A stretch of 64,000 nucleotides of DNA. Source: Candidatus Ruthturnera sp. Tsphm01. GTDB lineage: Bacteria; Pseudomonadota; Gammaproteobacteria; PS1; Pseudothioglobaceae. Where the stretch lies: assembly GCA_030142985.1 (NCBI GenBank), contig CP125320.1, forward strand, positions 3,639 through 67,638, given 5' to 3'. The position numbers and the translations under genes are program-made. Under the pieces are notes generated by a model. That model worked only from the letters and a program-made list of their open reading frames with translations, did not search any database and had not been told where the DNA came from. Within the stretch, counting starts at the first letter, position 1; each line of letters begins with the position of its first letter. Positions 3,001 to 33,802 of this stretch are shown here, in pieces.

Positions 3001-6000
3001 ATGTAGAGGTGATAGGCAATGCTTGGTCAATTGACACAGAAACAAAAACACCTTCATCAGGAGTATTGGGAGCATTTGTAGATGGACAAAGCTATGATAT
3101 TGTTGCAACCGTAACAGACGTAGCTGGCAATAGTGTAAGCGATAACTCAATCAATGAGTTGACTATTGATAATACAGCCTCAAACGCTCCAACCATTGAC
3201 TCAGTCTCAAATGATGACCTTATCAATGCAGCTGAGAACGCAGCAGGTTTTAATCTAACTGGTACAGGTGAAGTTGGTAGTACTATTATTGTTTCAGGAT
3301 TTGAAACTGGTGTGGCTGACAAAACAACAAGCGTTGCTGTAGATGGCACTTGGTCAATTGCAATTGTTGATGCAGATTTGGCTGATAATGGCTCAAATAC
3401 TTTAACAGCAACACAAACAGACTCAGTAGGCAACACAAGCCCTGCTGCAACTAGAACAATCACCATAGATTTAATTGCACCAACAACCCCAAGCGTTGAT
3501 AGTCTAACAACTAATGATTTAACCCCAACTATAACAGGTACAGCCACACTAACTAATGGTGAAACCTTAAGCGTAAGTGTTAATGGTGCAATCTATGACA
3601 ATGTAGAGGTGATAGGCAATGCTTGGTCAATTGACACAGAAACAAAAACACCTTCATCAGGAGTATTGGGAGCATTTGTAGATGGACAAAGCTATGATAT
3701 TGTTGCAACCGTAACAGACGTAGCTGGCAATAGTGCAAGCGATAACTCAATCAATGAGTTGACTATTGATAATACAGCCTCAAACGCTCCAACCATTGAC
3801 TCAGTCTCAAATGATGACCTTATCAATGCAGCTGAGAACGCAGCAGGTTTTAATCTAACTGGTACAGGTGAAGTTGGTAGTACTATTATTGTTTCAGGAT
3901 TTGAAACTGGTGTGGCTGACAAAACAACAAGCGTTGCTGTAGATGGCACTTGGTCAATTGCAATTGTTGATGCAGATTTGGCTGATAATGGCTCAAATAC
4001 TTTAACAGCAACACAAACAGACTCAGTAGGCAACACAAGCCCTGCTGCAACTAGAACAATCACCATAGATTTAATTGCACCAACAACCCCAAGCGTTGAT
4101 AGTCTAACAACTAATGATTTAACCCCAACTATAACAGGTACAGCCACACTAACTAATGGTGAAACCTTAAGCGTAAGTGTTAATGGTGCAATCTATGACA
4201 ATGTAGAGGTGATAGGCAATGCTTGGTCAATTGACACAGAAACAAAAACACCTTCATCAGGAGTATTGGGAGCATTTGTAGATGGACAAAGCTATGATAT
4301 TGTTGCAACCGTAACAGACGTAGCTGGCAATAGTGCAAGCGATAACTCAATCAATGAGTTGACTATTGATAATACAGCCTCAAACGCTCCAACCATTGAC
4401 TCAGTCTCAAATGATGACCTTATCAATGCAGCTGAGAACGCAGCAGGTTTTAATCTAACTGGTACAGGTGAAGTTGGTAGTACTATTATTGTTTCAGGAT
4501 TTGAAACTGGTGTGGCTGACAAAACAACAAGCGTTGCTGTAGATGGCACTTGGTCAATTGCAATTGTTGATGCAGATTTGGCTGATAATGGCTCAAATAC
4601 TTTAACAGCAACACAAACAGACTCAGTAGGCAACACAAGCCCTGCTGCAACTAGAACAATCACCATAGATTTAATTGCACCAACAACCCCAAGCGTTGAT
4701 AGTCTAACAACTAATGATTTAACCCCAACTATAACAGGTACAGCCACACTAACTAATGGTGAAACCTTAAGCGTAAGTGTTAATGGTGCAATCTATGACA
4801 ATGTAGAGGTGATAGGCAATGCTTGGTCAATTGACACAGAAACAAAAACACCTTCATCAGGAGTATTGGGAGCATTTGTAGATGGACAAAGCTATGATAT
4901 TGTTGCAACCGTAACAGACGTAGCTGGCAATAGTGCAAGCGATAACTCAATCAATGAGTTGACTATTGATAATACAGCCTCAAACGCTCCAATCATTAAC
5001 AAAGTATCAAATGATAACCTTATCAATGCAGCTGAGAACGCAGCAGGTTTTAATCTAACTGGTACAGGTGAAGTTGGTGATTTTATTACTGTTTCAGGAT
5101 TTGAAGCTGGTGTGGCTGACAAAACAACAAGCGTTGCTGAAGATGGCACTTGGTCAATTGCAATTGTTGATACAGATTTAGCTGATAATGGCTCAAATAC
5201 TTTAACAGCAACACAAACAGACTCAGTAGGCAACACAAGCCCTGCTGCAACTATAACAATCACCACAGATTTAATTGCACCAACAACCCCAAGCGTTGAT
5301 AGTCTAACAACTAATGATTTAACCCCAACTATAACAGGTACAGCCACACTAACTAATGGTGAAACCTTAAGCGTAAGTGTTAATGGTGCAATCTATGACA
5401 ATGTAGAGGTGATAGGCAATGCTTGGTCAATTGACACAGAAACAAAAACACCTTCATCAGGAGTATTGGGAGCATTTGTAGATGGACAAAGCTATGATAT
5501 TGTTGCAACCGTAACAGACGTAGCTGGCAATAGTGTAAGCGATAACTCAATCAATGAGTTGACTATTGATAATACAGCCTCAAACGCTCCAACCATTGAC
5601 TCAGTCTCAAATGATGACCTTATCAATGCAGCTGAGAACGCAGCAGGTTTTAATCTAACTGGTACAGGTGAAATTGGTAGTACTATTACTGTTTCAGGAT
5701 TTGAAACTGGTGTGGATGACAAAACAACAAGCGTTGCTGTAGATGGCACTTGGTCAATTGCAATTGTTGATACAGATTTGGCTGATAATGGCTCAAATAC
5801 TTTAACAGCAACACAAACAGACTCAGTAGGCAACACAAGCCCTGCTGCAACTAGAACAATCACCACAGATTTAATTGCACAATATTCACCAATAGTTGAT
5901 GGACCAACAATTAGTAATAGCCTATCCATATTTATAGGAGGTATAGCATGGATTGATGAGGGTGATACATTAAGCGTAAGTGTTAATGGTGCAACCTATA

Positions 6001-9000
6001 ACGATGTGCAGGTTATAAACCATGGTTGGAATATTGACATACAAACAGCAATACCTTCATCAGGAGTATTGGGAGCATTTGTAGATGGACAAAGCTATGA
6101 TGTTGTTGCAACTGTAACAGACGCAGCTGGCAATAGCGCAAGCGACAATACAATCAATGAGTTGATTATTGATGACACAGCCCCAGACGTCATTGTCCCA
6201 GGCGCTCCAATCATTAACAAAGTATCAAATGATAACCTTATCAATGCAGAAGAGAACGCAGCGGGTTTCAATCTAACTGGTACAGCCTACGCTAGTTATA
6301 CTGGTTATGCTAATCGTTTTGATATTGTTACAGTTTCTGGATTTAAAGGTGGTGATGAGAAAGCTGCATTCATTAATGAAGATCGTACTTGGTCATTTGC
6401 AATTACTGATGAGGATTTGTTTGATAATGCTTCAACCACTTTAACAGTAGTGCAACGCGTAAAGCCTTGTGCTACCTGCGACTACGTCCAAAGCCCTGTT
6501 GCAACTATAACAATCACCACAGATTTAATTGCACCAACAACCCCAAGCGTTGATAGTCTAACAACTAATGATTTAACCCCAACTATAACAGGTACAGCCA
6601 CACTGACTGATGGTGAAACCTTAAGCGTAAGTGTTAATGGTGCAATCTATGACAATGTAGAAGTGACAGGCAATGCTTGGTCAATTGACACAGAAACAAA
6701 AACACCTTCATCAGGAGTATTGGAAGCATTTGTAAATGGACAAAGCTATAACATTATTGCAATTGCAACAGACGCAGCTGGCAATAGTGCAAGAGATAAC
6801 TCAATCAATGAGTTGACTATTGATAATACAGCCTCAAACGCTCCAACCATTGACTCAGTCTCAGATGATGACCTTATCAATGCAGCTGAGAACGCAGCAG
6901 GTTTTGATCTAACTGGTACAGGTGAAGCTGGTAATACTATTATTGTTTCAGGATTTGAAGCTGGTGTGGCTGACAAAACAACAAGCGTTGCTGCAGATGG
7001 CACTTGGTTAATTGCAATTGTTGATGCAGATTTGGCTGATAATGGCTCAAATACTTTAACAGCAACACAAACAGACTCAGTAGGCAACACAAGCCCTGCT
7101 GCAACTAGAACAATCACCACAGATTTAATTGCACCAATAGACGGCGTATACGTTAATAATTTAATAACTAACAACCTAACTCCAACCATAACAGGTTCAT
7201 CAGCCACACTCGCTGATGGTGAAACCTTAAGCGTAAGTGTTAATGGTGCAATCTATGACAATGTGCAGGTGATAAGCCATACTTGGTTAATTAACACAGA
7301 AACAGCAATACCTTCATCAGGAATATTGGAAGCATTTGTAGATGGACAAAGCTATGATATTGTTGCAACTGTAACAGACGCAGCTGGCAATAGTGCAAGC
7401 GATAATACAACCAATGAGTTGACTATTGATAGCACAGCCTCAGACGTCCCAGACACACCAAACGCTCCAACCATTAGCTCAGTCTCAGGTGATAACCTTA
7501 TCAATGCAGCTGAGAACGTAGCAGGTTTTGATTTAACTGGTACAGGTGAAGCTGGTAATACTATTATTGTTTCAGGATTTGAAGCTGGTGTGGCTGACAA
7601 AACAACAACCGTTGCTGCAGATGGCACCTGGTCAATTACAATTGTTGATGCAGATTTGGCTGATAATGGCTCAAATACTTTAACAGCGGTACAAGTAAAC
7701 TCAGAAGGCATCCCAAGCCCTCTTGCAACTATAACAATCACCACAGATTTAATTGCACCAACAGCCCCAAGCGTTGATAGTCTAACAACTAATGATTTAA
7801 CCCCAACTATAACAGGTAGAGCTACACTGACTGATGGTGAAACCTTAAGCGTAATTGTTAATGGTGCAATCTATGACAATGTAGAGGTGATAGGCAATGC
7901 TTGGTCAATTGACACAGAAACAAAAACACCTTCATCAGGAGTATTGGAAGCATTTGTAGATGGACAAAGTTATAACATTGTTGCAATTGCAACAGACGCA
8001 GCTGGTAATAGTGCAAGAGATAACTCAAACAATGAGTTGACTATTGATAATACAGCCTCAAACGCTCCAACCATTGACTCAGTCTCAGATGATGACCTTA
8101 TCAATGCAGCTGAGAACGCAGCAGGTTTTAATCTAACTGGTACAGGTGAAGTTGGTGATTTTATTACTGTTTCAGGATTTGAAGCTGGTGTGGCTGACAA
8201 AACAACAAGCGTTGCTGTAGATGGCACTTGGTCAATTGCAATTGTTGATGCAGATTTGGCTGATAATGGCTCAAATACTTTAACAGCAACACAAACAGAC
8301 TCAGTAGGCAACACAAGCCCTGCTGCAACTAGAACAATCACCACAGATTTAATTGCACCAATAAACCTATTGGTTTATTATCTAACAACTAATGAGTTAA
8401 CCCCAACCATAAAAGGTGTACTCACACTCACTGATGGTGAAAGCGTAAGCGTAAGCGTGAGCGTTAATGGCGCAATCTATGATAATGTAGAGGTGATAGG
8501 CAATATCTGGTCAGTTGACACAGAAACAGTCACACCTTCATCAGGAACATTGGGAACTTTTGTAAATGGACAAAGCTATGACATTGTTGCAACCGTAACA
8601 GACGTAGCTGGAAATAGCGATATCTTAAGCAATGAGTTGATTTTTGATACCACAGCCCCAGACGCTCCAACCATTAACTCAGTCTCAGGTGACAACCTTA
8701 TCAATGCAGCTGAGAACGCAGCAGGTTTTAATCTAACTGGTACAGGTGAAGCTGGTAGTACTATTACTGTTTCAGGATTTGAAGCTGGTGTGAGTAACAA
8801 AAAAGTAGGCGTTGCTGAAGATGGCACTTGGTCAATTGCAATTGTTGACACAGATTTGGCTGATAATGGCTCAAACACTTTAATAGTAACAGATACAGAC
8901 CGAGCAGGCAACATAAGCCCTGCTGCAACTATAACAATCACCACAGATTTAATTGCACCAACAACCCCAAGCGTTGATAGTCTAACAACTAATGATTTAA

Positions 9001-12000
9001 CCCCAACTATAACAGGTACAGCCACACTGACTGATGGTGGAACCTTAAGCGTAAGTGTTAATGGTGCAATCTATGACAATGTAGAGGTGATAGGCAATGC
9101 TTGGTTAATTGACACAGAAACAGCAACACCTTCATCAGGAGTATTGGAAGCATTTGTAGATGGACAAAGTTATGACATTATTGCAATTGCAACAGACGCA
9201 GCTGGTAATAGTGCAAGCGATGACTCAAACAATGAATTGACTATTGATAGTACAACCTCAAACGCTCCAACCATTAACTCAGTCTCAGATGATGACCTTA
9301 TCAATGCAGCTGAGAACGCAGCAGGTTTTAATCTAACTGGTACAGGTGAAGTTGGTAGTACTATTATTGTTTCAGGATTTGAAACTGGTGTGGCTGACAA
9401 AACAACAACCGTTGCTGCAGATGGCACTTGGTTAATTGCAATTGTTGATACAGATTTAGCTGATAATGGCTCAAATACTTTAAAAGCAACACAAACAGAC
9501 TCAGTAGGCAACACAAGCCCTGCTGCAACTAAAACAATCACCACAGATTTAATTGCACCAACAACCCCAAGCGTTGATAGTCTAACAACTAATGATTTAA
9601 CCCCAACTATAACAGGTAGAGCTACACTGACTGATGGTGAAACCTTAAGCGTAAGTGTTAATGGTGCAATCTATGACAATGTAGAGGTGATAGGCAATGC
9701 TTGGTTAATTGACACAGAAACAGCAACACCTTCATCAGGAGTATTGGAAGCATTTGTAGATGGACAAAGTTATGACATTATTGCAATTGCAACAGACGCA
9801 GCTGGTAATAGTGCAAGCGATGACTCAAACAATGAGTTGACTATTGATAGTACAGCCTCAAACGCTCCAACCATTAACTCAGTCTCAGATGATGACCTTA
9901 TCAATGCAGCTGAGAACGCAGCAGGTTTTAATCTAACTGGTACAGGTGAAGTTGGTAGTACTATTACTGTTTCAGGATTTGAAACTGGTGTGGGTGACAA
10001 AACAACAAGCGTTGCTGTAGATGGCACTTGGTCAATTGCAATTGTTGATACAGATTTAGCTGATAATGGCTCAAATACTTTAAAAGCAACACAAACAGAC
10101 TCAGTAGGCAACACAAGCCCTGCTGCAACTAAAACAATCACCACAGATTTAATTGCACCAACAACCCCAAGCGTTGATAGTCTAACAACTAATGATTTAA
10201 CCCCAACTATAACAGGTACAGCCACACTCACTGATGGTGAAACCTTAAGCGTAATTGTTAATGGTGCAATCTATGACAATGTAGAGGTGATAGGCAATGC
10301 TTGGTCAATTGACACAGAAACAAAAACACCTTCATCAGGAGCATTGGGAGCATTTGTAGATGGACAAAGCTATGATATTGTTGCAACCGTAACAGACGTA
10401 GCTGGCAATAGTGCAAGCGATAACTCAATCAATGAGTTGACTATTGATAATCCAGCCTCAAACGCTCCAATCATTAACAAAGTATCAAATGATAACCTTA
10501 TCAATGCAGAAGAGAACGCAGCAGGTTTTAATCTAACTGGTACAGGTGAAGTTGGTGATTTTATTACTGTTTCAGGATTTGAAGCTGGTGTGGCTGACAA
10601 AACAACAAGCGTTGCTGAAGATGGCACTTGGTCAATTGCAATTGTTGATACAGATTTAGCTGATAATGGCTCAAATACTTTAACAGCAACACAAACAAAC
10701 TCAGTAGGCAACACAAGCCCTGCTGCAACTATAACAATCACCACAGATTTAATTGCACCAACAACCCCAAGCGTTGATAGTCTAACAACTAATGATTTAA
10801 CCCCAACTATAACAGGTACAGCCACACTCGCTGATGGTGAAACCTTAAGCGTAAGTGTTAATGGTGCAATCTATGACAATGTAGAGGTGATAGGCAATGC
10901 TTGGTTAATTGACACAGAAACAGCAACACCTTCATCAGGAGTATTGGAAGCATTTGTAGATGGACAAAGTTATGACATTATTGCAATTGCAACAGACGCA
11001 GCTGGTAATAGTGCAAGCGATGACTCAAACAATGAGTTGACTATTGATAGTACAGCCTCAAACGCTCCAACCATTGACTCAGTCTCAGATGATGACCTTA
11101 TCAATGCAGAAGAGAACGCAGCAGGTTTTAATCTAACTGGTACAGGTGAAGTTGGTAGTACTATTACTGTTTCAGGATTTGAAACTGGTGTGGCTGACAA
11201 AACAACAAGCGTTGCTGTAGATGGCACTTGGTCAATTGCAATTGTTGATACAGATTTAGCTGATAATGGCTCAAATACTTTAAAAGCAACACAAACAGAC
11301 TCAGTAGGCAACACAAGCCCTGCTGCAACTAAAACAATCACCACAGATTTAATTGCACCAATAGACGGCGTATACGTTAATAATTTAATAACTAACAACC
11401 TAACTCCAACCATAACAGGTTCATCAGCCACACTCGCTGATGGTGAAACCTTAAGCGTAAGTGTTAATGGTGCAATCTATGACAATGTGCAGGTGATAAG
11501 CCATACTTGGTTAATTAACACAGAAACAGCAATACCTTCATCAGGAATATTGGAAGCATTTGTAGATGGACAAAGCTATGATATTGTTGCAACTGTAACA
11601 GACGCAGCTGGCAATAGTGCAAGCGATAACTCAATCAATGAGTTGACTATTGATAGCACAGCCTCAGACGTCCCAGACACACCAAACGCTCCAACCATTA
11701 GCTCAGTCTCAGGTGATAACCTTATCAATGCAGCTGAGAACGTAGCAGGTTTTGATTTAACTGGCACAGGTGAAGGTAACAACCTTGTTATTGTTTCAGG
11801 ATTTGAAGTTGGCGTGGCTGATAAAGAAATAATAGTTGCTGCAGATGGCACCTGGTCAATTACAATTGTTGATGCAGATTTAGCTGATAATGGCTCAAAT
11901 ACTTTAACAGCGGTACAACTAAACTCAAAAGGCATCCCAAGCCCTGCTGCAACTATAACAATCACCACAGATTTAATTGCACCAACAACCCCAAGCGTTG

Positions 12001-15000
12001 ATAGTCTAACAACTAATGATTTAACCCCAACTATAACAGGTACAGCCACACTCACTGATGGTGAAACCTTAAGCGTAATTGTTAATGGTGCAATCTATGA
12101 CAATGTGCAGGTGATAAGCCATACTTGGTTAATTAACACAGAAACAGCAATACCTTCATCAGGAATGTTGGGTTTTTTTGTAGAAGGACAAAGCTATGAT
12201 GTTGTTGCAACTGTAACAGACGCAGCTGGCAATAGTGCAAGCGATAACTCAATCAATGAGTTGACTATTAATAATCCAGCCCCAGACGCTCCAACCATTA
12301 ACTCAGTCTCAGGTGATAACCTTATCAATGCAGCTGAGAACGCAGCAGGTTTTAATCTAACTGGTACAGGTAAAGTTGGTGATTTTATTACTGTTTCAGG
12401 ATTTGAAGCTGGTGTGGCTTACAAAACAACAAGCGTTGCTGAAGATGGCACTTGGTCAATTGCAATTGTTGATACAGATTTAGCTGATAATGGCTCAAAT
12501 ACTTTAACAGCAACACAAACAAACTCAGTAGGCAACACAAGCCCTGCTGCAACTATAACAATCACCACAGATTTAATTGCACCAACAACCCCAAGCGTTG
12601 ATAGTCTAACAACTAATGATTTAACCCCAACTATAACAGGTACAGCCACACTGACTGATGGTGAAACCTTAAGCGTAAGTGTTAATGGTGCAATCTATGA
12701 CAATGTAGAAGTGACAGGCAATGCTTGGTCAATTGACACAGAAACAAAAACACCTTCATCAGGAGCATTGGGAGCATTTGTAGATGGACAAAGCTATGAT
12801 ATTGTTGCAACCGTAACAGACGTAGCTGGCAATAGTGCAAGAGATAACTCAATCAATGAGTTGACTATTGATAATACAGTCTCAAACGCTCCAACCATTG
12901 ACTCAGTCTCAAATGATGACCTTATCAATGCAGAAGAGAACGCAGCAGGTTTTAATCTAACTGGTACAGGTGAAGTTGGTAGTACTATTACTGTTTCAGG
13001 ATTTGAAACTGGTGTGGGTGACAAAACAACAAGCGTTGCTGTAGATGGCACTTGGTCAATTGCAATTGTTGATACAGATTTAGCTGATAATGGCTCAAAT
13101 ACTTTAAAAGCAACACAAACAGACTCAGTAGGCAACACAAGCCCTGCTGCAACTAAAACAATCACCACAGATTTAATTGCACCAACAACCCCAAGCGTTG
13201 ATAGTCTAACAACTAATGATTTAACCCCAACTATAACAGGTACAGCCACACTCACTGATGGTGAAACCTTAAGCGTAATTGTTAATGGTGCAATCTATGA
13301 CAATGTAGAGGTGATAGGCAATGCTTGGTCAATTGACACAGAAACAAAAACACCTTCATCAGGAGCATTGGGAGCATTTGTAGATGGACAAAGCTATGAT
13401 ATTGTTGCAACCGTAACAGACGTAGCTGGCAATAGTGCAAGCGATAACTCAATCAATGAGTTGACTATTGATAATCCAGCCTCAAACGCTCCAATCATTA
13501 ACAAAGTATCAAATGATAACCTTATCAATGCAGAAGAGAACGCAGCAGGTTTTAATCTAACTGGTACAGGTGAAGTTGGTGATTTTATTACTGTTTCAGG
13601 ATTTGAAGCTGGTGTGGCTGACAAAACAACAAGCGTTGCTGAAGATGGCACTTGGTCAATTGCAATTGTTGATACAGATTTAGCTGATAATGGCTCAAAT
13701 ACTTTAACAGCAACACAAACAAACTCAGTAGGCAACACAAGCCCTGCTGCAACTATAACAATCACCACAGATTTAATTGCACCAACAACCCCAAGCGTTG
13801 ATAGTCTAACAACTAATGATTTAACCCCAACTATAACAGGTACAGCCACACTGACTGATGGTGAAACCTTAAGCGTAAGTGTTAATGGTGCAATCTATGA
13901 CAATGTAGAGGTGATAGGCAATGCTTGGTCAATTGACACAGAAACAAAAACACCTTCATCAGGAGTATTGGGAGCATTTGTAGATGGACAAAGCTATAAC
14001 ATTATTGCAATTGCAACAGACGCAGCTGGTAATAGTGCAAGAGATAACTCAATCAATGAGTTGACTATTGATAATACAGCCTCAAACGCTCCAACCATTG
14101 ACTCAGTCTCAGATGATGACCTTATCAATGCAGAAGAGAACGCAGCAGGTTTTAATCTAACTGGTACAGGTGAAATTGGTAGTACTATTACTGTTTCAGG
14201 ATTTGAAACTGGTGTGGATGACAAAACAACAAGCGTTGCTGTAGATGGCACTTGGTCAATTGCAATTGTTGATACAGATTTGGCTGATAATGGCTCAAAT
14301 ACTTTAACAGCAACACAAACAGACTCAGTAGGCAACACAAGCCCTGCTGCAACTAGAACAATCACCACAGATTTAATTGCACAATATTCACCAATAGTTG
14401 ATGGACCAACAATTAGTAATAGCCTATCCATATTTATAGGAGGTATAGCATGGATTGATGAGGGTGATACATTAAGCGTAAGTGTTAATGGTGCAACCTA
14501 TAACGATGTGCAGGTTATAAACCATGGTTGGAATATTGACATACAAACAGCAATACCTTCATCAGGAGTATTGGGAGCATTTGTAGATGGACAAAGCTAT
14601 GATGTTGTTGCAACTGTAACAGACGCAGCTGGCAATAGCGCAAGCGACAATACAATCAATGAGTTGATTATTGATGACACAGCCCCAGACGTCATTGTCC
14701 CAGGCGCTCCAATCATTAACAAAGTATCAAATGATAACCTTATCAATGCAGAAGAGAACGCAGCGGGTTTCAATCTAACTGGTACAGCCTACGCTAGTTA
14801 TACTGGTTATGCTAATCGTTTTGATATTGTTACAGTTTCTGGATTTAAAGGTGGTGATGAGAAAGCTGCATTCATTAATGAAGATCGTACTTGGTCATTT
14901 GCAATTACTGATGAGGATTTGTTTGATAATGCTTCAACCACTTTAACAGTAGTGCAACGCGTAAAGCCTTGTGCTACCTGCGACTACGTCCAAAGCCCTG

Positions 15001-18000
15001 TTGCAACTATAACAATCACCACAGATTTAATTGCACCAACAACCCCAAGCGTTGATAGTCTAACAACTAATGATTTAACCCCAACTATAACAGGTACAGC
15101 CACACTGACTGATGGTGAAACCTTAAGCGTAAGTGTTAATGGTGCAATCTATGACAATGTAGAAGTGACAGGCAATGCTTGGTCAATTGACACAGAAACA
15201 AAAACACCTTCATCAGGAGTATTGGGAGCATTTGTAGATGGACAAAGCTATAACATTATTGCAATTGCAACAGACGCAGCTGGTAATAGTGCAAGAGATA
15301 ACTCAATCAATGAGTTGACTATTGATAATACAGCCTCAAACGCTCCAACCATTGACTCAGTCTCAGATGATGACCTTATCAATGCAGCTGAGAACGCAGC
15401 AGGTTTTGATCTAACTGGTACAGGTGAAGCTGGTAATACTATTATTGTTTCAGGATTTGAAGCTGGTGTGGCTGACAAAACAACAAGCGTTGCTGCAGAT
15501 GGCACTTGGTTAATTGCAATTGTTGATGCAGATTTGGCTGATAATGGCTCAAATACTTTAACAGCAACACAAACAGACTCAGTAGGCAACACAAGCCCTG
15601 CTGCAACTAGAACAATCACCACAGATTTAATTGCACCAACAGCCCCAAGCGTTGATAGTTTAATAGTTAATGGCCTAAGCCTCCCAACTATAACTGGTTT
15701 TGCCACACTCGCTGATGGTGAAACCTTAAGCGTGAGTGTTAATGGCGCAAACTATAACAATGTGCAGGTGATAGGCAATACTTGGATACTTTATACGCAT
15801 TCAACAAAACCCTCATCAGGAATGTTGGGTTTTTTTGTAGATGGACAAAGCTATGATATTGTTGCAACTGTAACAGACGCAGCTGGCAATAGTGCAAGCG
15901 ATAATACAACCAATGAGTTGACTATTGATAGCACAGCCTCAGACGTCCCAGACACACCAAACGCTCCAACCATTAGCTCAGTCTCAGGTGATAACCTTAT
16001 CAATGCAGCTGAGAACGCAGCAGGTTTTGATTTAACTGGTACAGGTGAAGCTGGTAATACTATTATTGTTTCAGGATTTGAAGCTGGTGTGGCTGACAAA
16101 ACAACAACCGTTGCTGCAGATGGCACCTGGTCAATTACAATTGTTGATGCAGATTTGGCTGATAATGGCTCAAATACTTTAACAGCGGTACAAGTAAACT
16201 CAGAAGGCATCCCAAGCCCTCTTGCAACTATAACAATCACCACAGATTTAATTGCACCAACAGCCCCAAGCGTTGATAGTCTAACAACTAATGATTTAAC
16301 CCCAACTATAACAGGTAGAGCTACACTGACTGATGGTGAAACCTTAAGCGTAATTGTTAATGGTGCAATCTATGACAATGTAGAGGTGATAGGCAATGCT
16401 TGGTCAATTGACACAGAAACAAAAACACCTTCATCAGGAGTATTGGAAGCATTTGTAGATGGACAAAGTTATAACATTGTTGCAATTGCAACAGACGCAG
16501 CTGGTAATAGTGCAAGAGATAACTCAAACAATGAGTTGACTATTGATAATACAGCCTCAAACGCTCCAACCATTGACTCAGTCTCAGATGATGACCTTAT
16601 CAATGCAGCTGAGAACGCAGCAGGTTTTAATCTAACTGGTACAGGTGAAGTTGGTGATTTTATTACTGTTTCAGGATTTGAAGCTGGTGTGGCTGACAAA
16701 ACAACAAGCGTTGCTGAAGATGGCACTTGGTCAATTGCAATTGTTGATACAGATTTAGCTGATAATGGCTCAAATACTTTAACAGTAACACAAACAGACC
16801 TAGCAGGCAACACAAGCCCTGCTGCAACTATAACAATCACCACAGATTTAATTGCACCAACAGCCCCAAGCGTTGATAGTCTAACAACTAATGATTTAAC
16901 CCCAACTATAACAGGTACAGCCACACTCGCTGATGGTGAAACCTTAAGCGTAAGTGTTAATGGTGCAATCTATGACAATGTAGAGGTGATAGGCAATGCT
17001 TGGTCAATTGACACAGAAACAAAAACACCTTCATCAGGAGCATTGGGAGCATTTGTAGATGGACAAAGCTATGATATTGTTGCAACCGTAACAGACGTAG
17101 CTGGCAATAGTGCAAGCGATGACTCAATCAATGAGTTGACTATTGATAATACAGCCTCAAACGCTCCAACCATTGACTCAGTCTCAGATGATGACCTTAT
17201 CAATGCAGAAGAGAACGCAGCAGGTTTTAATCTAACTGGTACAGGTGAAGTTGGTGATTTTATTACTGTTTCAGGATTTGAAGCTGGTGTGGCTGACAAA
17301 ACAACAAGCGTTGCTGAAGATGGCACTTGGTCAATTGCAATTGTTGATACAGATTTAGCTGATAATGGCTCAAATACTTTAACAGTAACACAAACAGACC
17401 TAGCAGGCAACACAAGCCCTGCTGCAACTATAACAATCACCACAGATTTAATTGCACCAACAGCCCCAAGCGTTGATAGTCTAACAACTAATGATTTAAC
17501 CCCAACTATAACAGGTACAGCCACACTCGCTGATGGTGAAACCTTAAGCGTAATTGTTAATGGTGCAATCTATGACAATGTAGAGGTGATAGGCAATGCT
17601 TGGTCAATTGACACAGAAACAAAAACACCTTCATCAGGAGCATTGGGAGCATTTGTAGATGGACAAAACTATGATATTGTTGCAACCGTAACAGACGTAG
17701 CTGGCAATAGTGCAAGCGATGACTCAATCAATGAGTTGACTATTGATAATACAGCCTCAAACGCTCCAAGCGTTGATAGTCTAACAACTAATGATTTAAC
17801 CCCAACTATAACAGGTACAGCCACACTCGCTGATGGTGAAATCTTAAGCGTAATTGTTAATGGTGCAATCTATGACAATGTAGAGGTGATAGGCAATGCT
17901 TGGTCAATTGACACAGAAACAAAAACACCTTCATCAGGAGCATTGGGAGCATTTGTAGATGGACAAAACTATGATATTGTTGCAACCGTAACAGACGCAG

Positions 18001-21000
18001 CTGGCAATAGCATAAGCGATAACTCAAACAATGAGTTGACTATTGATACTACAGCCCCAGGCGCTCCAACCATCAACACAGTATCAAATGATAACCTTAT
18101 TAATGCAGCTGAGAACGCAGCAGGTTTTAATCTAACTGGTACAGGTGAAGTTGGTGATTTTATTACTGTTTCAGGATTTGAAGCTGGTGTGGCTGACAAA
18201 ACAACAAGCGTTGCTGAAGATGGCACTTGGTCAATTGCAATTGTTGATACAGATTTAGCTGATAATGGCTCAAATACTTTAACAGTAACACAAACAGACC
18301 TAGCAGGCAACACAAGCCCTGCTGCAACTAGAACAATCACCACAGATTTAATTGCACCAACAACCCCAAGCGTTGATAGTCTAACAACTAATGATTTAAC
18401 CCCAACTATAACAGGTACAGCCACACTAACTAATGGTGAAACTTTAAGCGTAAGTGTTAATGGCGCAAGCTATAACAATGTGCAGGTGATAAACAATGTT
18501 TGGTCAATTGACACAGGAGCAAAAACACCTTCATCAGGAACATTAGGAGCTTTTGTAGATGGACAAAGCTATGACATTGTTGCAACTGCAACAGACGTAG
18601 CTGGTAATAGTGCAAGCGATGACCCAATCAATGAGTTGACTATTGATAGTGCAGTCCCATTAGTTGCATCAGTGACAATTTCAGGCTTAGACAGTTTAAA
18701 TAATGAAAAAACAACTAAATTAAGATTGGGTGATAAGGTTAAAGTTTCTATCCAGATGAGTGAAGATGTTAGCGTAGATACTACAGGTGGCTCTCCAACA
18801 TATACAATTAATGTTGATAATGTATATAAACAAGCAACTTATGATGCTGATTTATCAAGTGCAAATACTTTGGTATTTACTTATACAACAGAAGAAGGTA
18901 TTGATGATACTTCAGGTGGTATTACAGCAGATGCAAATATGCTAAACTTTAATGGTGGAACAATACAAGATTTAGTAGGCAATGCTATTTCTTTATCTCA
19001 AGTTGCAATGCCAGTGGCAAATGATAATTTACCAGATGGTATAACTGTTATAGCTTCTGGAGAAGCAGAAGAAAATCACCTAGCATCAAATCTTATAGAT
19101 GGTATTGTCGATTACTCTAATGCTGAGTTGGAAAGGTACTTAGGCATTGGAGATAAAGCAGTAACACTAGCTTATAGCGAACAACTTCAGGCAAACGGCG
19201 TTCGTATCTATTGGGATGCTGAAGCATGGCAAGCAACTCCAAGAAAGCCAACCGCATTTGATGTTAAGATTTATACAAATAGTGGCGACTCAGAAGCAAC
19301 AGAGACGATTGCTTTTACTTCTTTGAATTGGGTTGAGAATAGCGCTTTAGGGTCTGGGGTTTATTATGCTGATTTAGATTTTTCAGGGGATAAAACCTTT
19401 GGCAAATTAGATTTGATTGGTAGTTCTGAAGATGTTAGTAAAATTTACTATCATGAAGTTCGATTATTAATAAATAAAAATGTTGTGCTTACATCAGAAG
19501 TTGCTATAAGTGATAATCTGGTTTCTATTGATGCCACAGTTCCAGACGCTCCAACCATTGATAGTTTAATAGTCAATAGCCTAATAGCCCCAACCATAAC
19601 AGGTACAGCCACACTCGCTGATGATGAAACCCTAAGCGTGAGTGTTAATGGCGCAAGCTATAACAATGTAGAGGTGACAGACAATACTTGGTCAATTAAC
19701 ACAGAAACAAAAACACCTTCATCAGGAATATTGGGAGCATTTGTAGATGGACAAAGCTATGACATTGTTGCAATTGCAACAGATGCAGCTGGTAATATTG
19801 CAAGAGATAACTCAAGCAATGAATTAGTTATAAACATTCTTAAGCATGTTCGTACTACTACTTTAGTTGAGCCTGATGGTAAAACTGATGGAGATGACAA
19901 CGGTCCTCAAATAGCAGCACTGGGTACAGACGGGGCATTTGTCGTCACTTGGGTTGGCATAGGCGCTAATGACAATGATCGCTCTATTTTTGTGCAGAGG
20001 TTTAAGGCTGATGGCACTAAGGATGGTGGTAGTATTGAAGTTGAGCCTTATAACCTCCTTAATGAAGATGACATCGATCCTCAAATAATATCACTGGGTA
20101 CAGATGGGGCATTTGTCGTCACTTGGGCTGGTGGTGATGGTGTTAATAGTGATACCTCTATTTTTGTGCAGAAGTTTGATGTTGATGGCGCTAAGGATGG
20201 GCTTGCTATTGAAATTGAGCCTGATGGCAGAACTAATGCACATGACCTCCGTCCTCAAATAACAGCACTAGGCACAGATGGGGCATTTGTCGTCGCTTGG
20301 GATGGCATAGGCGCTGATGACGATGATATTTCTATTTTTGTGCAGAAGTTTGATATTCATGGCAATGAGGATGGCGGTACTATTGAAATTGAACCTAGTA
20401 CTAACAATGATAAACATGACAGATACGCTCAAATAACAGCACTAGGCACAGATGGAGAGTTTGTCGTCACTTGGGTTGGTGAAGGTAATGTACACTCTGA
20501 TACCTCTATTTTTATGCAGAAGTTTAAGGCTGATGGCACTAAGAATGGTGGCACTGATGAAATTGAACCTAGTACTAACGATGCTGGAAATGACTACGAT
20601 CATCAAACAACAGCACTGGGTTCAGATGGAGCATTTGTCGTCACTTGGGCTGGTGAAAATCTTGCCAGCTCTTCTGATAGGTCTCTTTTTGTGCAGAAGT
20701 TTGATGTTGATGGCAATAAGGTTGGCGGTAGTACTGAAATTGGGGTTGATGACCAAGCTTATGGAACTGACCGCCGTCCTCAAATAATGTCACTGAGTGA
20801 ATATGGAGCATTTGTCGTCACTTGGATTGGCTTATCTAGTGACGATTCTGATACCTCTATTTATATACAGAGGTTTGATGTTGATGGCAATAAGTATGGC
20901 GGTACTGTTGAAATTGAGCCTGATGGCAGAACTAATGCAAATGACTTCACTCCTCAAATAACAGAATTGGGTGGAAAAAATGGAGCCTTTGTCGTCACTT

Positions 21001-24000
21001 GGTCTGGTTTAGGCGCTAATGACAATGATCGTTCTATTTTTATACAGAGGTTTGATGTTGATGGTCCTAGTGGGGGCACTGTTGAAATTGAGCCTGATAA
21101 CATCCCTTATGGAGATGACTTAAACCCTCAAACAGAAGCAGTGGGTGCATATGGAGAGTTTGTCGTCACTTGGAGAGGTCTAGACAATGATGGGGATACC
21201 TCTATTTTTGTGCAGAAGTTTAATGCTGATGGCACTAAGAGCGTTATTATCCTAGAGACTCCAACCATTAACTCAGTATCAAATGATAACATTATCAATG
21301 CAGAAGAGAACGCAGCAGGTTTTGATTTAACTGGTACAGGTAAATCTGGTAATATTATTACCGTTTCAGGATTTGAAGCTGGTGTGGATGACAAAAAAGC
21401 ACTCGTTGCTACAGATGGCACTTGGTCAATTGCAATTGTTGATGAAGATTTGGCTGATAATGGCTCAAACACTTTAACAGCAACACAAACAGAAACATCA
21501 GGCGTCACAAGTCCTGCTGCAACTATAACAATCACCACAGATTTAATTGCACCAAAAACCCCAAGCGTTAATAGTCTAACAACTAATGATTTAACCCCAA
21601 CTATAACAGGTACAGCCACACTGACTGATGGTGAAACCTTAAGCGTAAGTGTTAATGGCGCAAGCTATAACAATGTACAGGTGATAAACGGTACTTGGTC
21701 AATTAACACAGAAACAAAAACACCTTCATCAGGAGCATTGGAAGCATTTGTAAATGGACAAAGCTATGACATTATTGCAATTACAACAGATGTAGTTGGT
21801 AATAGTGCAAGAGATAGTTCAAACAATGAATTGACTATTGATGTCACAGCCCCAGACGCCCCAGACGTTCCAACCATTGACTCAGTCTCAGATGATGACC
21901 TTATCAATGCAGCTGAAAACGCAGCAGGTTTTGATTTAACTGGTACAGGTGAAGCTGGTAATACTATTATTGTTTCAGGATTTGAAGCTGGTGTGGATGA
22001 CAAAAAAGCACTCGTTGCTACAGATGGCACTTGGTCAATTGCAATTGTTGATGCAGATTTGGCTGATAATGGCTCAAATACTTTAATAGCAATAGAAACC
22101 TTACACAATCTCCGAAGCCCTGCTGTAACTAGAATAATCACCACAGATTTAATTGCACCAACAACCCCAGGCGTTGATAGTTTAACAATTTATAACCCAA
22201 CCCTAGCTCCAACCATAACAGGTACAGCCACACTCGCTGATGATGAAACCCTAAGCGTGAGTGTTAATGGCGCAAGCTATGACAATGTAAAGGTGACAGG
22301 CAATGCTTGGTCAATTGACACAGAAACAAAAACACCTTCATCAGGAGTATTGGGAGCATTTGTAGATGGACAAAGCTATGATATTGTTGCAACTGTAACA
22401 GACGTAGCTGGCAATAGCGTAAGCGATAGCTCAAGCAATGAATTGGTTATAAAGCATACTTATACTACTTTAGTTGAGCCTGATGGTAAAGCTGATGGAG
22501 ATGACAACGGTCCTCAAATAGCAGCACTGGGTACAGACGGGGCATTTGTCGTCACTTGGACTGGCATAGGCGCTAATGACAATGATCGCTCTATTTTTGT
22601 GCAGAGGTTTAAGGCTGATGGCACTAAGGATGGTGGTAGTATTGAAGTTGAGCCTTATAACTTCCTTAATGGAGATGACATCGATCCTCAAATAACAGCG
22701 TTGGGTACAGATGGGGCATTTGTCGTCACTTGGGTTGGTGTTAGTGTTGTTGGTGGTGATACCTCTATTTTTGTGCAGAAGTTTGATGTTGATGGCGCTA
22801 AGGATGGGCTTGCTATTGAAATTGAGCCTGATGGTAAGACTAATGGAACTGACCTCCATCCTCAAATAATAGCACTAGGCACAGATGGAGAGTTTGTCGT
22901 CGCTTGGGATGGCATAGGCGCTGATGACGATGATACCGTTATTTTTGTGCAGAAGTTTGATATTTATGGCAATGAGGATGGCGCTATTATTGAACTTGAG
23001 CCTGATATTCGCAGTTCTGGATCTGACACCGATCCTCAAATAACAGCACTAGGCACAGATGGAGAGTTTGTTGTCACTTGGATTGGCATGTCTTATCATG
23101 ATGATAGATCCGTTTTTATGCAGAAGTTTGATGCTGATGGCATTAAGATTGGTGGCACTGTTGAAATTGAGCCTGATGACCGAATTACACAACATGACCA
23201 CGATCATCAAACAGCAGCAGTGGGTACAGATGGAGCATCTGTCATCACTTGGTTTGCTCCAAGTACTGCTCGCTATGAAGAAAGATCAGACGCTATTTAT
23301 GGTATTTATGTACAGAAGCTTAAGGCTGATGGCACTAAGGATGGCGGTAGTACTGAAATTTGGCCTGATGATCAATTTTATGGAAATGGCTCCGATCCTC
23401 AAATAACAGCGTTGGGCGCAGATGAAGCATTTGTCATCACTTGGATTGGCTTATCTGATTACGGTGGTGATACCTCTATTTATATACAGAGGTTTGATGT
23501 TCATGGCAATAAGGATGGCGGCACTATTGAAATTGAGCCTGATGGTAACTCTCTTGAAAATGACTACACTCCTAAAACATTAGCATTGGGTGGAGATGGA
23601 GCCTTTGTCGTCGTTTGGTCTGGTTTCGACCTTGATGATCGTTCTATTTTTGTGCAGAGGTTTGATATTCATGGCAATAAGGATGGCGGCACTGTTAAAA
23701 TTGAGCCTGATAACAACTCTTATGGAGATGACTTAGATCCTCAAATAGAAGCACTAGGTATATATGGAGCATTTGTCGTCACTTGGAAAGGTGTAGACAC
23801 TAATGGGGATACCTCTATTTTTGTGCAGAAGTTTAATGCTGATGGCACTAAGAGCACTGCTATCAAAGACAACTCAAAAGTTCCAACCATTAACACAGTA
23901 TCAAATGATAACCTTATCAATGCAGAAGAGAACGCAGCAGGTTTTGATCTAACTGGTACAGGTGAAGTTGGTAGTACTATTACTGTTTCAGGATTTGAAG

Positions 24001-26882
24001 CTGGTGTGGCTGACAAAACAACAAGCGTTGCTGTAGATGGCACTTGGTCAATTGCAATTGTTGATACAGATTTAGCTGATAATGGCTCAAACACTTTAAC
24101 AGTAGCACAAATAAGCTTAGAATACATCGAAAGCCCTACTGTAACTATAACAATCACCACAGATTTAATTGTTCCAGACGCTCCAATCATTAACTCAGTC
24201 TCAGATGATGACCTTATCAATGCAGAAGAGAACGCAGCAGGTTTTGATCTAACTGGTACAGGTGAAGTTGGTAGTATTATTACTGTTTCAGGATTTGAAA
24301 CTGGTGTGGATGACAAAACAACAAGCGTTGCTGTAGATGGCACTTGGTCAATTGCAATTGTTGATACAGATTTGGCTGATAATGGCTCAAATACTTTAAC
24401 AGCAACACAAACAGACCTAGCAGGCAACACAAGCCCTGCTGCAACTATAACAATCACTACAGATTTAATTGCGCCAACAACCCCCCCAAGCGTTGATAGT
24501 CTAACAACTAATGATTTAACCCCAACTATAACAGGTAGAGCTACACTGACTGATGGTGAAACCTTAAGCGTAAGTGTTAATGGTGCAAGCTATAACAATG
24601 TACAGGTGATAGGTAATACTTGGTGGAGACTTGATACACAAGTAGCAATACTTTCATCAGGAACATTGGGAGCATTTGTAGATGGACAAAGTTATGACAT
24701 TGTTGCAACTGCAACAGACGCAGCTGGTAATAGTGTAAGCGATGACTCAAACAATGAGTTGACTATTAATCTGGCATCAATTAGTGCACCAATAGTTGAC
24801 TTAATTATAACTAATACCATAACTCCAACCGTATCAGGTAGTGCAACCTTGCTTGATGGAGAGACATTAAGTGTTAGTGTCAATGGCGCTACTTATGATA
24901 ATGTTGCTGTTGATGGGTTTGGTAATTGGATAATAAATACAGAAACAGCTAGTGTATCAAGTGGTTCACTGGGAGCATTTAAATATGGACAAAACTATGA
25001 TGTTGTGGCAACAATAACTGATTTAGCAACAAACAGCATGAGTGATTCCTCTATTGATGAGCTTACTATACGAAATCAAGAGTATGTACTGCAGTATCCT
25101 ACTTTAGTTGAGCCTGAGGGTAAAATTGATGGAGATGACTTTGATCCTCAAATAACAGCGTTGGGTACAGAGGGAGCATTTGTGGTTACTTGGCGCGGTC
25201 AATCTATTGACAATGATAACTCTATTTTTGTGCAGAAGTTTGATGTTGATGGCGCTAAGGATGGGCTTGCTGTTGAAATTGAATTTAATGGAAATAAACC
25301 TAAACCTCAAATAACAGCGTTGGGTACAGAGGGAGCATTTGTGGTTACTTGGAATGCTCAAAACTCTAGTAACACTGATGATTACTCTATTTTTGTGCAG
25401 AAGTTTGATGTTGATGGCGCTAAGGATGGGCTTGCTGTTGAAATTGATTCTGAGGATGGTGTAACTAATGGATATGACTATAATCCTCAAATAACAGCGT
25501 TGGGTACAGAGGGAGCATTTGTGGTTACTTGGCATGGTTTAAATGCTAGTCACTCTGGTCACTCTATTTTTGTGCAGAAGTTTGATGTTGATGGCGCTAA
25601 GGATGGGATTGCTGTTGAATTTGATTCTGATGGATCTAATAATGGATTTGACCTCCATCCTCAAATAACAGCGTTGGGTACAGAGGGAGCATTTGTGGTT
25701 ACTTGGCATGGTGGTGTTGTTGATGGTGATACCTCTGTTTTTGTGCAGAAGTTTGATGTTGATGGCGCTAAGGATGGGCTTGCTATTGAAATTGAGCCTG
25801 ATGGTAGAACTAATGGATATGACTTTATTCCTCAAATAACAGCGTTGGGTACAGAGGGAGCATTTGTGGTTACTTGGCTCGGTCAATCTATTGACAATGA
25901 TAACTCTATTTTTGTGCAGAAGTTTGATGCTAATGGCGCTGATGGGGGTAGTGTTGAAATTGAGCCTAATGGTAAAACTGATGGAGATGACTTTGATCCT
26001 CAAATAACAGCGTTGGGTACAGAGGGAGCATTTGTGGTTACTTGGCGCGGTCAATCTATTGACAATGATTACTCTATTTTTGTGCAAAAGTTTGATGTTA
26101 ATGGCGCTAAGGATGGGCTTGCTGTTGAAATTGAGCCTGAGGGTAGAGCTAATGGAGATGACCTTGAACCTCAAATAACAGCGTTGGGTACAGAGGGAGC
26201 ATTTGTGGTTACTTGGAGTGGTCAAGGTGCTAGTGACGATGATTACTCTATTTTTGTGCAAAAGTTTGATGTTAATGGCGCTAAGGATGGGCTTGCTATT
26301 GGAATTGAGCCTGAGGGTAGAGCTAGTGGAAATGACCTCATTCCTCAAATAACAGCGTTGGGTACAGAGGGAGCATTTGTGGTTACTTGGCATGGTTTAG
26401 ACGCTAATTGGGATAACTCTATTTTTGTGCAGAAGTTTGATTTAATTAGCAATGTATTAATGGGTACAAGTGCTGCTGAACACCTGTATGGCAGCAATAA
26501 CAACGATGTTATTATTGGCGATGGTGGTGATGATGTTCTTTCAGGGTTTGATGGTATAGATATATTTAAGTATGTAAGTGGCGGTTCTGCTGCAAACGGT
26601 AATGATATTATTACTGATTTTGTGATTGGCAGTGGTGGTGATAAGCTTGACCTAAGTGATTTACTTATAGGTGAGACGAGTGACACTTTGGCTAACTTTA
26701 TTGAAGTCATAGATAGTAATGGCGCTGATGATGGTGGTGATATTCTTATTAAGATTGATGTTGATGGTGGCAATGATTTTTTTGGCACACCAGATATTAC
26801 TATCACCTTAACAGGTGCAGGTATTACTGGTGCTGAAACAACATTGGCTAGTCTAATAACGGATAATATTGTGATTGGTTAA
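3..26882 (+). CDS. Giant repeat-rich RTX-type adhesin / type I secretion substrate, 5'-truncated by the window edge (at least 8,959 aa)
   Basis: Single uninterrupted ORF from the window edge to TAA at 26880-26882; bases 1-600 are already mid-repeat, so the start is upstream. The translation has ~31 tandem 200-aa units of two Ig-like domains, then unique Big_5-like and discoidin-like modules. Three 8-repeat propeller-like blocks follow, separated by more Ig-like domains. It ends with nonapeptides [27 protein letters not shown] and a [10 protein letters not shown]-type C-terminal T1SS target region. The protein is acidic, T/D/N/S/A/V-rich and almost Cys-free. Confidence 0.9.
1741..4980 (+). repeat. 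Run of about 5.4 near-perfect 600-bp copies (0-1 substitutions per unit)
   Basis: Line-by-line comparison. 1741-2340 vs 2341-2940 differ only at 2161-2220 (aaaagca vs aacagca). 2941-3540 differs only at tagtgtaagc (3131-3140). 2341-2940, 3541-4140 and 4141-4740 look identical by eye. Confidence 0.9.
5350..8210 (+). repeat. Higher-order segmental duplication, copy 1 (partner at about 13850-16710, offset 8502/8499 nt)
   Basis: The unique variant stretch starting aatattcaccaatagttgat at 5881 recurs at 14383. The text stays the same through ~7137/15639. A ~200-bp patch differs, then identity resumes at 7341/15840 and runs to ~8210/16710. Confidence 0.8.
13850..16710 (+). repeat. Higher-order segmental duplication, copy 2 (partner at about 5350-8210)
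   Basis: See copy 1. The boundaries are fuzzy because the flanks are themselves 600-bp repeat units. Confidence 0.8.
18651..19028 (+). other. Unique domain inside the giant ORF, SbsA/Big_5-like Ig domain (tentative)
   Basis: Non-repeated segment [14 protein letters not shown]...[27 protein letters not shown]...[41 protein letters not shown]. The 'x-V-x-F-S-E-x-V ... L-x-F-x-Y-T-V ... GGTIxDxxGN' pattern is typical of that Ig-like family. Assigned by eye only. Confidence 0.4.
19029..19475 (+). other. Unique ~150-aa domain inside the giant ORF, discoidin / F5-8 type C (galactose-binding-like) candidate
   Basis: [31 protein letters not shown]...[24 protein letters not shown]...[14 protein letters not shown]...[10 protein letters not shown]...[11 protein letters not shown]. 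Length, the 'A-x-N-L-I-D-G' opening, a W-rich core and the terminal 'E-V-x-L' resemble carbohydrate-binding discoidin modules. Not verifiable without an HMM search. Confidence 0.35.
19854..21242 (+). repeat. Propeller-like block 1: eight ~57-aa repeats ([18 protein letters not shown]..D.[24 protein letters not shown])
   Basis: Eight occurrences of the [AE]FVV[TA]W core, each preceded by PQI..LG and followed by SIFVQ[KR]F; the block starts with TTLVEPDG. Four short beta-strand-like segments per repeat suggest one propeller blade per repeat. Confidence 0.7.
22464..23855 (+). repeat. Propeller-like block 2: eight ~57-aa repeats, en-bloc paralogue of block 1
   Basis: Eight FV[VI].W cores. The first ~250 nt are almost identical to block 1 (22468 onward vs 19861 onward), and divergence grows toward the 3' end. 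Confidence 0.7.
25101..26441 (+). repeat. Propeller-like block 3: eight ~57-aa repeats with an internally homogenised DNA core
   Basis: The 48-nt string cctcaaataacagcgttgggtacagagggagcatttgtggttacttgg occurs eight times without change, starting near 25146, 25305, 25485, 25657, 25829, 25998, 26169 and 26343. Confidence 0.75.
26490..26879 (+). other. RTX nonapeptide repeats plus C-terminal type I secretion target region of the giant ORF
   Basis: Three consecutive nonapeptides at 26490-26570 fit GGxGxDxUx loosely ([27 protein letters not shown]). They are followed by [23 protein letters not shown]...[10 protein letters not shown]...ITITLTGAG, which resembles the VCA0849-subclass T1SS C-terminal domain. 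Confidence 0.75.
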
Positions 26883-32498: not shown

Positions 32499-32530
32499 TA
32501 ATAATTTTTAACTTAACACAAGAGCCACTA

Positions 32531-33751: not shown

Positions 33752-33802
33752 TTAGCAAAAAAAGATAGATTTTTAAAGAATAATAAAACGTTAAATTAAC
33801 CC

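Follow-up and report, generated by a model that had tools for sequence, protein, structure and literature searches.

The giant open reading frame and its three repeat blocks

We analyzed a 64,000-nucleotide stretch of the genome of Candidatus Ruthturnera sp. Tsphm01 (contig CP125320.1, positions 3,639 to 67,638 of the forward strand; hereafter the window), which begins within a giant open reading frame (ORF) whose product carries three blocks of a ~57-residue repeat close to its C-terminus. Motif scanning of the 8959-residue product identified 24 copies of this repeat, eight at residues 6635-7091, eight at 7504-7962 and eight at 8382-8830; no copies were detected in the first 6600 residues. 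A hidden Markov model (HMM) scan with repeats of the giant protein and of related proteins returned the same three blocks with the same counts (8 + 8 + 8). Analysis of the DNA with Tandem Repeats Finder (TRF) revealed a period of 174 with 7.9 copies for blocks 1 and 2 (scores of 965 and 885) and periods of 171 and 339 for block 3 (scores of 1475 and 1654), and the DNA-level repetition of the three blocks is far beyond chance. The consensus computed over the 24 copies was pQitaL.Gt.GaFVVtW.G...D.SifvQkFd.dG.kdg...eiep. An earlier inspection of the letters alone (the sequence-only reading) had described three blocks of exactly eight copies with a consensus of this form; the consensus agreed with ours, and the count was reproduced by both scans within one uninterrupted plus-strand ORF. 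The blocks are acidic (78-88 Asp and Glu versus 23-31 Lys and Arg per block) and contain no Cys. The canonical Dx[DN]xDG calcium motif was absent from the repeat, in which the C-D loop reads FDVDGAKDG.

The product as a whole has the hallmarks of a repeats-in-toxin (RTX) adhesin-like surface protein exported by a type I secretion system (T1SS), as judged from profile matches. The Ca_tandemer model of NCBIfam, which describes a Ca2+-stabilised repeat adhesin, matched with 99.8 bits (cut-off 50), and T1SS_VCA0849 of NCBIfam matched the C-terminus with 48.1 bits (cut-off 17.6, E = 2.1e-12). The C-terminal RTX repeats were matched by HemolysinCabind of Pfam (E = 9e-5, 22.8 bits for a cut-off of 23). 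The whole product is strongly acidic (1267 Asp and Glu, 233 Lys and Arg) and contains only four Cys. Its upstream part is an array of immunoglobulin (Ig)-like extender domains, the DNA of which showed a self-identity of 0.744 at a lag of 600 nucleotides and ~0.30 at a lag of 150 or 450 over 18 kb. The last ~2350 residues contain the three repeat blocks, with a group of four Ig-like domains between one block and the next (Table 1).

Table 1. Features of the giant ORF, in window coordinates
Feature	Position	Strand	Details	Basis
Giant ORF	3..26882	+	8959 residues, uninterrupted, open at the 5' end (start outside the window)	ORF list
Extender region	3..18650	+	Tandem Ig-like domains, 600-nucleotide (two-domain) period	Big_13, Big_6 and Ca_tandemer matches
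Two non-repeat domains	18651..19481	+	~122 and ~155 residues, upstream of propeller 1	Boundaries from translation
Predicted propeller 1	19854..21239	+	Putative closing strand TTTLVEP 19854-19874; blade starts 19905, 20079, 20253, 20427, 20601, 20778, 20955, 21126	
Four Ig-like spacer domains	21240..22463	+	Between propellers 1 and 2	Translation, motif anchors, Big_13/Ca_tandemer-type sequence
Predicted propeller 2	22464..23855	+	Putative closing strand TTLVEP; blade starts 22512, 22686, 22860, 23034, 23205, 23394, 23571, 23739	
Four Ig-like spacer domains	23856..25100	+	Between propellers 2 and 3	Translation; TRF period 300 x 2.0 at 23882-24471
Predicted propeller 3	25101..26441	+	Putative closing strand TLVEP; blade starts 25146, 25305, 25485, 25659, 25830, 25998, 26169, 26343	
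RTX nonapeptide repeats and C-terminal type I secretion signal	26442..26882	+	Directly after propeller 3	HemolysinCabind, T1SS_VCA0849

The repeat blocks are predicted to fold as eight-bladed propellers

The structure of block 3 was predicted by AlphaFold2 from an alignment in which it was combined with the other two blocks and with 63 homologues (alignment A1, model m84e4ef568ed4). The model had a mean predicted local distance difference test score (pLDDT) of 92.4 and a predicted template modelling score (pTM) of 0.93, and contained 32 strands in eight groups, each with a 3-residue strand ahead of three longer ones (7-9 residues). Block 1 was modelled together with its two flanking Ig-like domains (676 residues, alignment A3, model mae2bcb2eb97b). 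The overall confidence of this model was pLDDT 85 and pTM 0.78, with pLDDT ~87-97 in the propeller part (residues 111-570), and its strands formed the same repeating groups of one short and three long strands. Comparison of the block 3 model with the Protein Data Bank (PDB) using Foldseek gave 410 matches at E ≤ 0.001; all top matches were beta-propellers with a probability of 1.00. The model containing block 1 likewise matched propellers only, with a probability of 1.00. The sequence-only reading had proposed eight-bladed propellers of four-stranded blades and had named structure prediction as a test; neither block 3 nor block 1 gave a non-propeller fold such as a beta-solenoid, and both models and their structural matches support the proposal. 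Taken together, these models indicate that the protein very probably carries three eight-bladed propellers of the GxFVVxW/GIFGQRF repeat family within an RTX-type protein.

The best Foldseek match of block 3 was CylK, a Friedel-Crafts alkylating enzyme with a C-terminal beta-propeller (7roo/7ron; E = 2.5e-12 and TM-score on the query 0.58 for 7roo). CylK differs from the blocks in being an enzyme, shares 14% identity with no sequence relationship detected, and was aligned over part of its length (TM-score on the target 0.43). Other top matches were the PL42 lyase FoRham1, the Photorhabdus lectins PHL and PLL, sortilin, sialidases and GH43 enzymes. The propeller lectins CV39L, PHL and PLL matched with E-values of 6e-11 to 1e-7 and TM-scores on the target of 0.58-0.64; for CV39L (6gxs) these values were 5.8e-11 and 0.61-0.64. 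Sequence identity to the structural matches was only 8-16%, and the TM-scores were moderate, in line with expectation for an eight-bladed query superposed on seven-bladed targets.

Block boundaries and proposed ring closure

In the model of block 1 with its Ig-like neighbours, a low-confidence linker (residues 104-108) precedes the TTTLVEP segment and is the only disordered stretch near the junction, while the TLV residues form a confidently placed strand (113-115). The TLVEP segment is therefore part of the propeller; the sequence-only reading had placed it at the end of the preceding Ig domain, an assignment that the model reverses. The same reading had set every block between an A-type and a B-type Ig domain. 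This was correct for blocks 1 and 2 in so far as each is followed by an Ig-like domain, but block 3 runs directly into the RTX repeats and the T1SS signal.

Each block starts with an extra short strand of the EIE type (D-type) and ends right after the SIFVQKF (C) strand. Stand-alone relatives show the same arrangement, with a signal peptide, a G.EF.VN segment and seven repeats ending in ...GQRF/Y. Judging from hydrophobicity and strand pattern, the four strands of a blade should be PQITAL (A), AFVVTW (B), SIFVQKF (C) and vEIEp (D). As the two most hydrophobic and conserved segments, FVVxW and IFxQ+F are expected in the buried middle of the blade (strands B and C), with the short, charged EIE strand at its outer edge (strand D). 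Given this order, the N-terminal strand would complete the last blade, so that the TLVEP strand would close the ring in a 'velcro' arrangement. Such closure would put both chain ends side by side, with the disc projecting sideways from the Ig stalk.

The repeat is shared by a very large family without a curated model

The blocks were compared with curated families and known structures. No match to WD40, Kelch, NHL, FG-GAP/VCBS, PD40, YWTD/Ldl_recept_b, BNR/Asp-box or DUF5122 was obtained in a Pfam hmmscan at E ≤ 1, no NCBIfam model scored above its cut-off for the blocks, and no PDB chain matched them by sequence (phmmer) or by profile. Relatives of the consensus type gave only sub-threshold Pfam matches (DUF5122, E = 0.062; WDR75 propeller, E = 0.035). 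Matches to His_biosynth, DUF7567, DUF7528, CopC and MG1 in the Pfam, NCBIfam and PDB-sequence searches were sub-threshold or inflated by the repeats, contained no significant stretch, and were rejected. The view that the repeat lies outside any named family thus held in all of these searches. The only curated models with any similarity were two Leptospira models, NF053835 (PDIAV motif-containing lipoprotein) and NF038383 (LIC12048 family). NF053835 scored 26-30 bits against blocks 1 and 3 and stand-alone relatives (28.6 and 30.1 for the blocks) for a cut-off of 90, and LIC12048 scored 18 bits for a cut-off of 700. The 'PDIAV' of NF053835 is the counterpart of the P.VA strand in the repeat; both models are equivalogs built for other, functionally uncharacterised proteins.

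A search with block 3 gave 163 proteins among the candidates scored, with homologue E-values from 4.8e-133 to 1e-15. The homologue consensus, G.EF.VN..T.G.Q..P.VA....G.FVV.W.S...DG...GIF.QRFD..G, equals the GxFVVxW...GIFGQRF pattern that the sequence-only reading had noted for RTX exoproteins of other bacteria, and it is carried by RTX/T1SS proteins such as P0134 and P0139. These uncurated proteins have the same repeat as the window blocks (E-values down to 1e-133 for close relatives), start with a D-type strand and end with a C strand, are often tandem, and are secreted or surface-located. The window clade differs from the typical family in having 8 rather than 7 repeats and in altered loop motifs, for example T.G.D..PQ in place of T.G.Q..P.

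The distribution of the repeat was examined with a single-blade profile made from 113 repeats (alignment A2) and searched against 1.84 billion representative proteins. This search, of a kind that the sequence-only reading had suggested for distribution and domain context, revealed 50,111 clusters (50% identity) at E ≤ 0.001, of which 17,616 matched at E ≤ 1e-30. The top matches ranged from 1,000 to 7,900 residues in length and contained as many as 75 repeats. Among relatives with identifiable flanking domains, all identified modules were of secretion or surface types (RTX/T1SS, cohesin, a type IX secretion system (T9SS) tail, signal peptides, SLH or dockerin domains), and stand-alone secreted relatives with a signal peptide and a single propeller were also found. 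The repeat is widespread among environmental bacteria and defines a very large, uncurated, extracellular propeller family that is usually seven-bladed and has no curated model, solved structure or known function.

A scan of a genome collection with a single protein gave two loci only. In an uncultured Marinomonas (locus L001, contig CANLRQ010000023.1), the giant propeller gene adjoins OEP (TolC-like), ABC and HlyD genes; a TPR-sulfotransferase gene (889 residues, 6195-8864) lies between them. In a Marinimicrobia metagenome-assembled genome (locus L002, contig CALBFA010000074.1), the gene at 9869-12892 encodes a 1007-residue protein in which a distantly related propeller (24% identity) is joined to a C-terminal sorting domain for type IX secretion. 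Members of the family thus leave the cell by no fewer than three routes, T1SS, T9SS and Sec. The P0009 contig held only a fragmented giant gene.

Eight blades distinguish the window propellers

Block sizes were counted in the top 150 profile matches, a list biased towards long proteins, using only repeats that span the FVVxW-to-IFxQRF core. This analysis revealed 329 blocks of seven and 8 blocks of eight, with smaller numbers at 14, 21 and 28, which are abutting propellers. Six of the eight blocks of eight lie in one protein, P0139 (6971 residues, 6 x 8). Its final propeller shares 40% identity with block 3 and, like block 3, leads straight into RTX repeats and a T1SS signal. Complete blocks in the closer relatives numbered 35 of seven versus 6 of eight. 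Eight-bladed relatives included P0139, the Marinomonas L001 protein, P0001, P0002, P0006, P0013 and P0033; Oceanobacter and Ketobacter proteins were among the eight-bladed closer relatives. The window propellers belong to a small marine clade of T1SS proteins with eight blades. The sequence-only reading had regarded three tandem propellers as an unusual device. This was not supported, as 127 of the 150 top matches carried at least two blocks, and some up to nine; the distinguishing feature of the window propellers is eight blades instead of seven, not the tandem layout. Three relatives (P0124, P0125 and P0142) had uninterrupted, spacer-free arrays of 36-52 repeats (42 and 49 by the strict count, multiples of seven), which suggests strings of directly abutting propellers.

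A duplicated pair and a homogenised third propeller

To describe the internal history of the blocks, blades were compared within and between propellers. Propellers 1 and 2 were 94, 79, 70, 64, 50, 67, 62 and 64% identical from the first blade to the eighth, with each blade matching best the blade at the same position, and their Ig-propeller-Ig modules (676 residues) were 72% identical. Within propellers 1 and 2, mean identity between blades was 51-53%. The blade-by-blade colinearity and the identity of the modules therefore show that the pair was produced by duplication of an entire module with already differentiated blades. The fifth blade of propeller 2 has a 6-residue loop insertion. The blades of propeller 3 had a mean identity of 69% and were closest to blade 2 of the other propellers. 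Propeller 3 thus has homogenised blades, and propellers 1 and 2 form a duplicated pair whose blades are differentiated.

Comparison with characterised RTX adhesins and propeller lectins

The giant ORF shares with the RTX adhesins of Marinomonas primoryensis (MpIBP), Vibrio cholerae (FrhA), Aeromonas and Pseudomonas (LapA) its size, an array of Ca2+-type Ig-like extenders, RTX repeats and a T1SS signal, and in both the non-extender domains are concentrated near the C-terminus. RTX adhesins retain their N-terminus at the outer membrane and carry ligand-binding domains near the distal C-terminal end (PMC5550230; bioRxiv 10.1101/2025.09.30.679566). The ligand-binding domains described so far are carbohydrate-binding, von Willebrand factor A (vWFA), peptide-binding and ice-binding domains, which project from 'split' domains (bioRxiv 10.1101/2025.09.30.679566); the propellers of the giant ORF instead stand in line between complete Ig domains. 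Propellers are not mentioned in that survey of 35 adhesins or elsewhere in the RTX-adhesin literature examined on ligand-binding domains. Literature searches with the motif strings and the Leptospira model names returned nothing relevant to the repeat, the propeller-evolution literature examined mentions neither adhesins nor the repeat, and no account of the repeat or of such a propeller in an RTX adhesin was found. The only RTX-related propeller encountered, that of BapP from Pseudoalteromonas, is an unrelated five-bladed domain at the N-terminus.

The PLL-family lectins (Photorhabdus PHL and PLL2/4/5; Chromobacterium violaceum CV39L) are, like the blocks, all-beta secreted bacterial propellers built of similar repeats, and they were among the best structural matches (6gxs, 6fhx, 8q82, 6rg2). 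Repeated sugar sites are a feature of these lectins. They differ in being seven-bladed, soluble, stand-alone proteins, whereas the window blocks have eight blades and lie within a giant adhesin. No sequence homology of the blocks to PLL-type lectins was detected by phmmer or profile searches of PDB sequences; the likeness is at fold level (11-16% identity), and binding residues were not compared.

Proposed function and alternatives

We favour a reading in which the three eight-bladed propellers of this RTX-adhesin-like protein act as multivalent, lectin-like ligand binders, and consider it somewhat more probable than its alternatives taken together; for the ligand-binding function on its own, the chances seem about evenly balanced. 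Ca2+-dependent folding after T1SS export is established for RTX proteins, and it is expected for the blocks because they are acidic and free of Cys. The giant protein would be exported unfolded, C-terminus first, and each propeller would fold outside the cell, closing only after its own N-terminal strand has emerged; Ca2+ would probably aid this folding, given the acidic loops. The three discs would then serve as multivalent, lectin-like and probably carbohydrate-directed binding modules at the distal end of the adhesin, and propeller 3, with its near-identical blades, could present up to eight equivalent sites. A binding role is suggested by the fold-level likeness to propeller lectins and carbohydrate-active propellers, by the near-identical blades of propeller 3, a pattern more easily reconciled with several equivalent sites than with a single asymmetric active site, and by the extracellular setting of all relatives with identifiable flanking domains.

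Several observations weigh against this proposal. No ligand, binding-site residue or Ca2+ site was identified. The blocks resemble lectins in fold alone (11-16% identity, TM-scores of 0.45-0.64, seven versus eight blades), and the single best structural match is an enzyme, with hydrolases or lyases making up many of the others. The N-terminal retention module that defines RTX adhesins would fall outside the window, as the ORF runs off its 5' end, and no T1SS, LapG or LapD genes were found downstream of the giant ORF, the one side that the window covers. The gene neighbourhoods of three stand-alone relatives differed from one another and gave no functional clue. Finally, the velcro closure and the assignment of strands to blades rest on strand pattern and hydrophobicity rather than inspected coordinates.

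With regard to the fold itself, the repeats might form a solenoid or an open array rather than closed propellers, the eight-fold count being incidental. The fold is known from predictions alone, the coordinates of which were not inspected, and some relatives carry uninterrupted arrays of 42-49 repeats. Such an arrangement is nevertheless very unlikely given the pTM of 0.93 for a single compact domain, high-probability structural matches that are all propellers, and block sizes in relatives that are quantised at 7, 14, 21 and 28, with few at 8, as closed toroids predict.

If the fold is accepted, the propellers could be enzymes displayed on a stalk (glycoside hydrolases, polysaccharide lyases, sialidases or CylK-type alkylating enzymes) that modify a substrate or the biofilm matrix. 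CylK as top match is in keeping with this, as are Foldseek matches to the PL42 rhamnose-glucuronate lyase, a PL24 lyase, GH43 and GH145-type hydrolases and sialidases. We consider catalysis distinctly unlikely, however, because identity to these proteins is 8-16% with no profile-level match to any such enzyme, because propeller enzymes use asymmetric residues from different blades while the blades of block 3 are nearly identical, and because three copies per protein, and up to nine in relatives, are atypical of catalytic domains. A role that involves no external ligand is also fairly unlikely, though less so than catalysis. The propellers would here be structural or folding modules that ratchet the C-terminus-first export, or would make homophilic contacts that bundle adhesins or build biofilm matrix. 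This would suit their position next to the C-terminal beta-roll, which emerges first in type I secretion, their acidic and likely Ca2+-dependent loops, and the extremely wide spread of the family across unrelated surface proteins, which is compatible with a generic scaffold. In characterised RTX adhesins, however, spacing and ratchet are already provided by Ig-like extenders and the beta-roll (PMC7493085), and stand-alone single-propeller proteins with a signal peptide need neither.

Returning to propellers as lectin-like binders, a broader version of this proposal can be put forward only tentatively, and we regard it as doubtful. On this view, a propeller-type ligand-binding domain would be recognised in RTX adhesins for the first time, and the blocks would found a hitherto undefined extracellular superfamily of seven- or eight-bladed lectin-like propellers (at least 50,000 clusters). 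Every blade would bear one equivalent Ca2+-dependent glycan site, with up to 24 at the tip of this protein, and the whole family would constitute a major class of modules for surface recognition in microbes that has so far been overlooked. Ligand-binding domains set the targets of RTX adhesins and are themselves targets of anti-adhesion strategies, and the types catalogued so far (carbohydrate-binding, vWFA, peptide-binding and ice-binding) include no propeller. The repeat is among the larger families with no Pfam or NCBIfam model, structure or function and often occurs in proteins of 2,000-8,000 residues, and a family definition would improve the annotation of 'hypothetical' and 'large repetitive' proteins in environmental genomes. 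The switch from seven to eight blades, together with the contrast between a duplicated pair and a freshly homogenised propeller 3, offers a natural example of evolution by blade amplification. The degree of surprise is moderate, since the fold is ordinary, a surface-adhesin context is expected, the multi-propeller layout is common and the function is inferred; the findings matter for the definition of the family and for the question of whether this family represents a new class of ligand-binding domain in adhesins.

Other features of the giant ORF and neighbouring genes

The two non-repeat domains upstream of propeller 1 had no covering Pfam match at E ≤ 1 and no PDB sequence match, and may be further ligand-binding domains. 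The ~155-residue domain (19017-19481) had been likened by eye to a discoidin/F5-8-type-C-like fold, a beta-sandwich like those of carbohydrate-binding modules; this candidate was dropped, as it had no Pfam or PDB sequence support. A compensated frameshift suspected in an Ig domain near 24618 was also rejected, as alignment with the paralogous DNA revealed only in-frame indels and substitutions. The G+C content of the giant ORF was 40.4%, compared with 36.8% for the rest of the window.

Approximately 20 antisense ORFs of 151-159 residues, all with a GTG start, recur every 600 nucleotides on the minus strand opposite the extender repeats (92-18424), and longer antisense ORFs (163-284 residues) lie opposite the propeller region, for example at 25539-26393. 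These look like by-products of the repetitive sense strand and not genes. Downstream of the giant ORF, positions 28795-47267 contain a housekeeping cluster devoid of secretion genes, with two small unassigned ORFs, a flavoprotein and an Fe-S subunit of the fumarate reductase/succinate dehydrogenase type, malic enzyme, tRNA-Tyr/Gly/Thr, tuf, tRNA-Trp, nusG, rplA and rplJ. Two further ORFs in this cluster, of 1360 and 1395 residues, were taken as rpoB and rpoC by size and position only.

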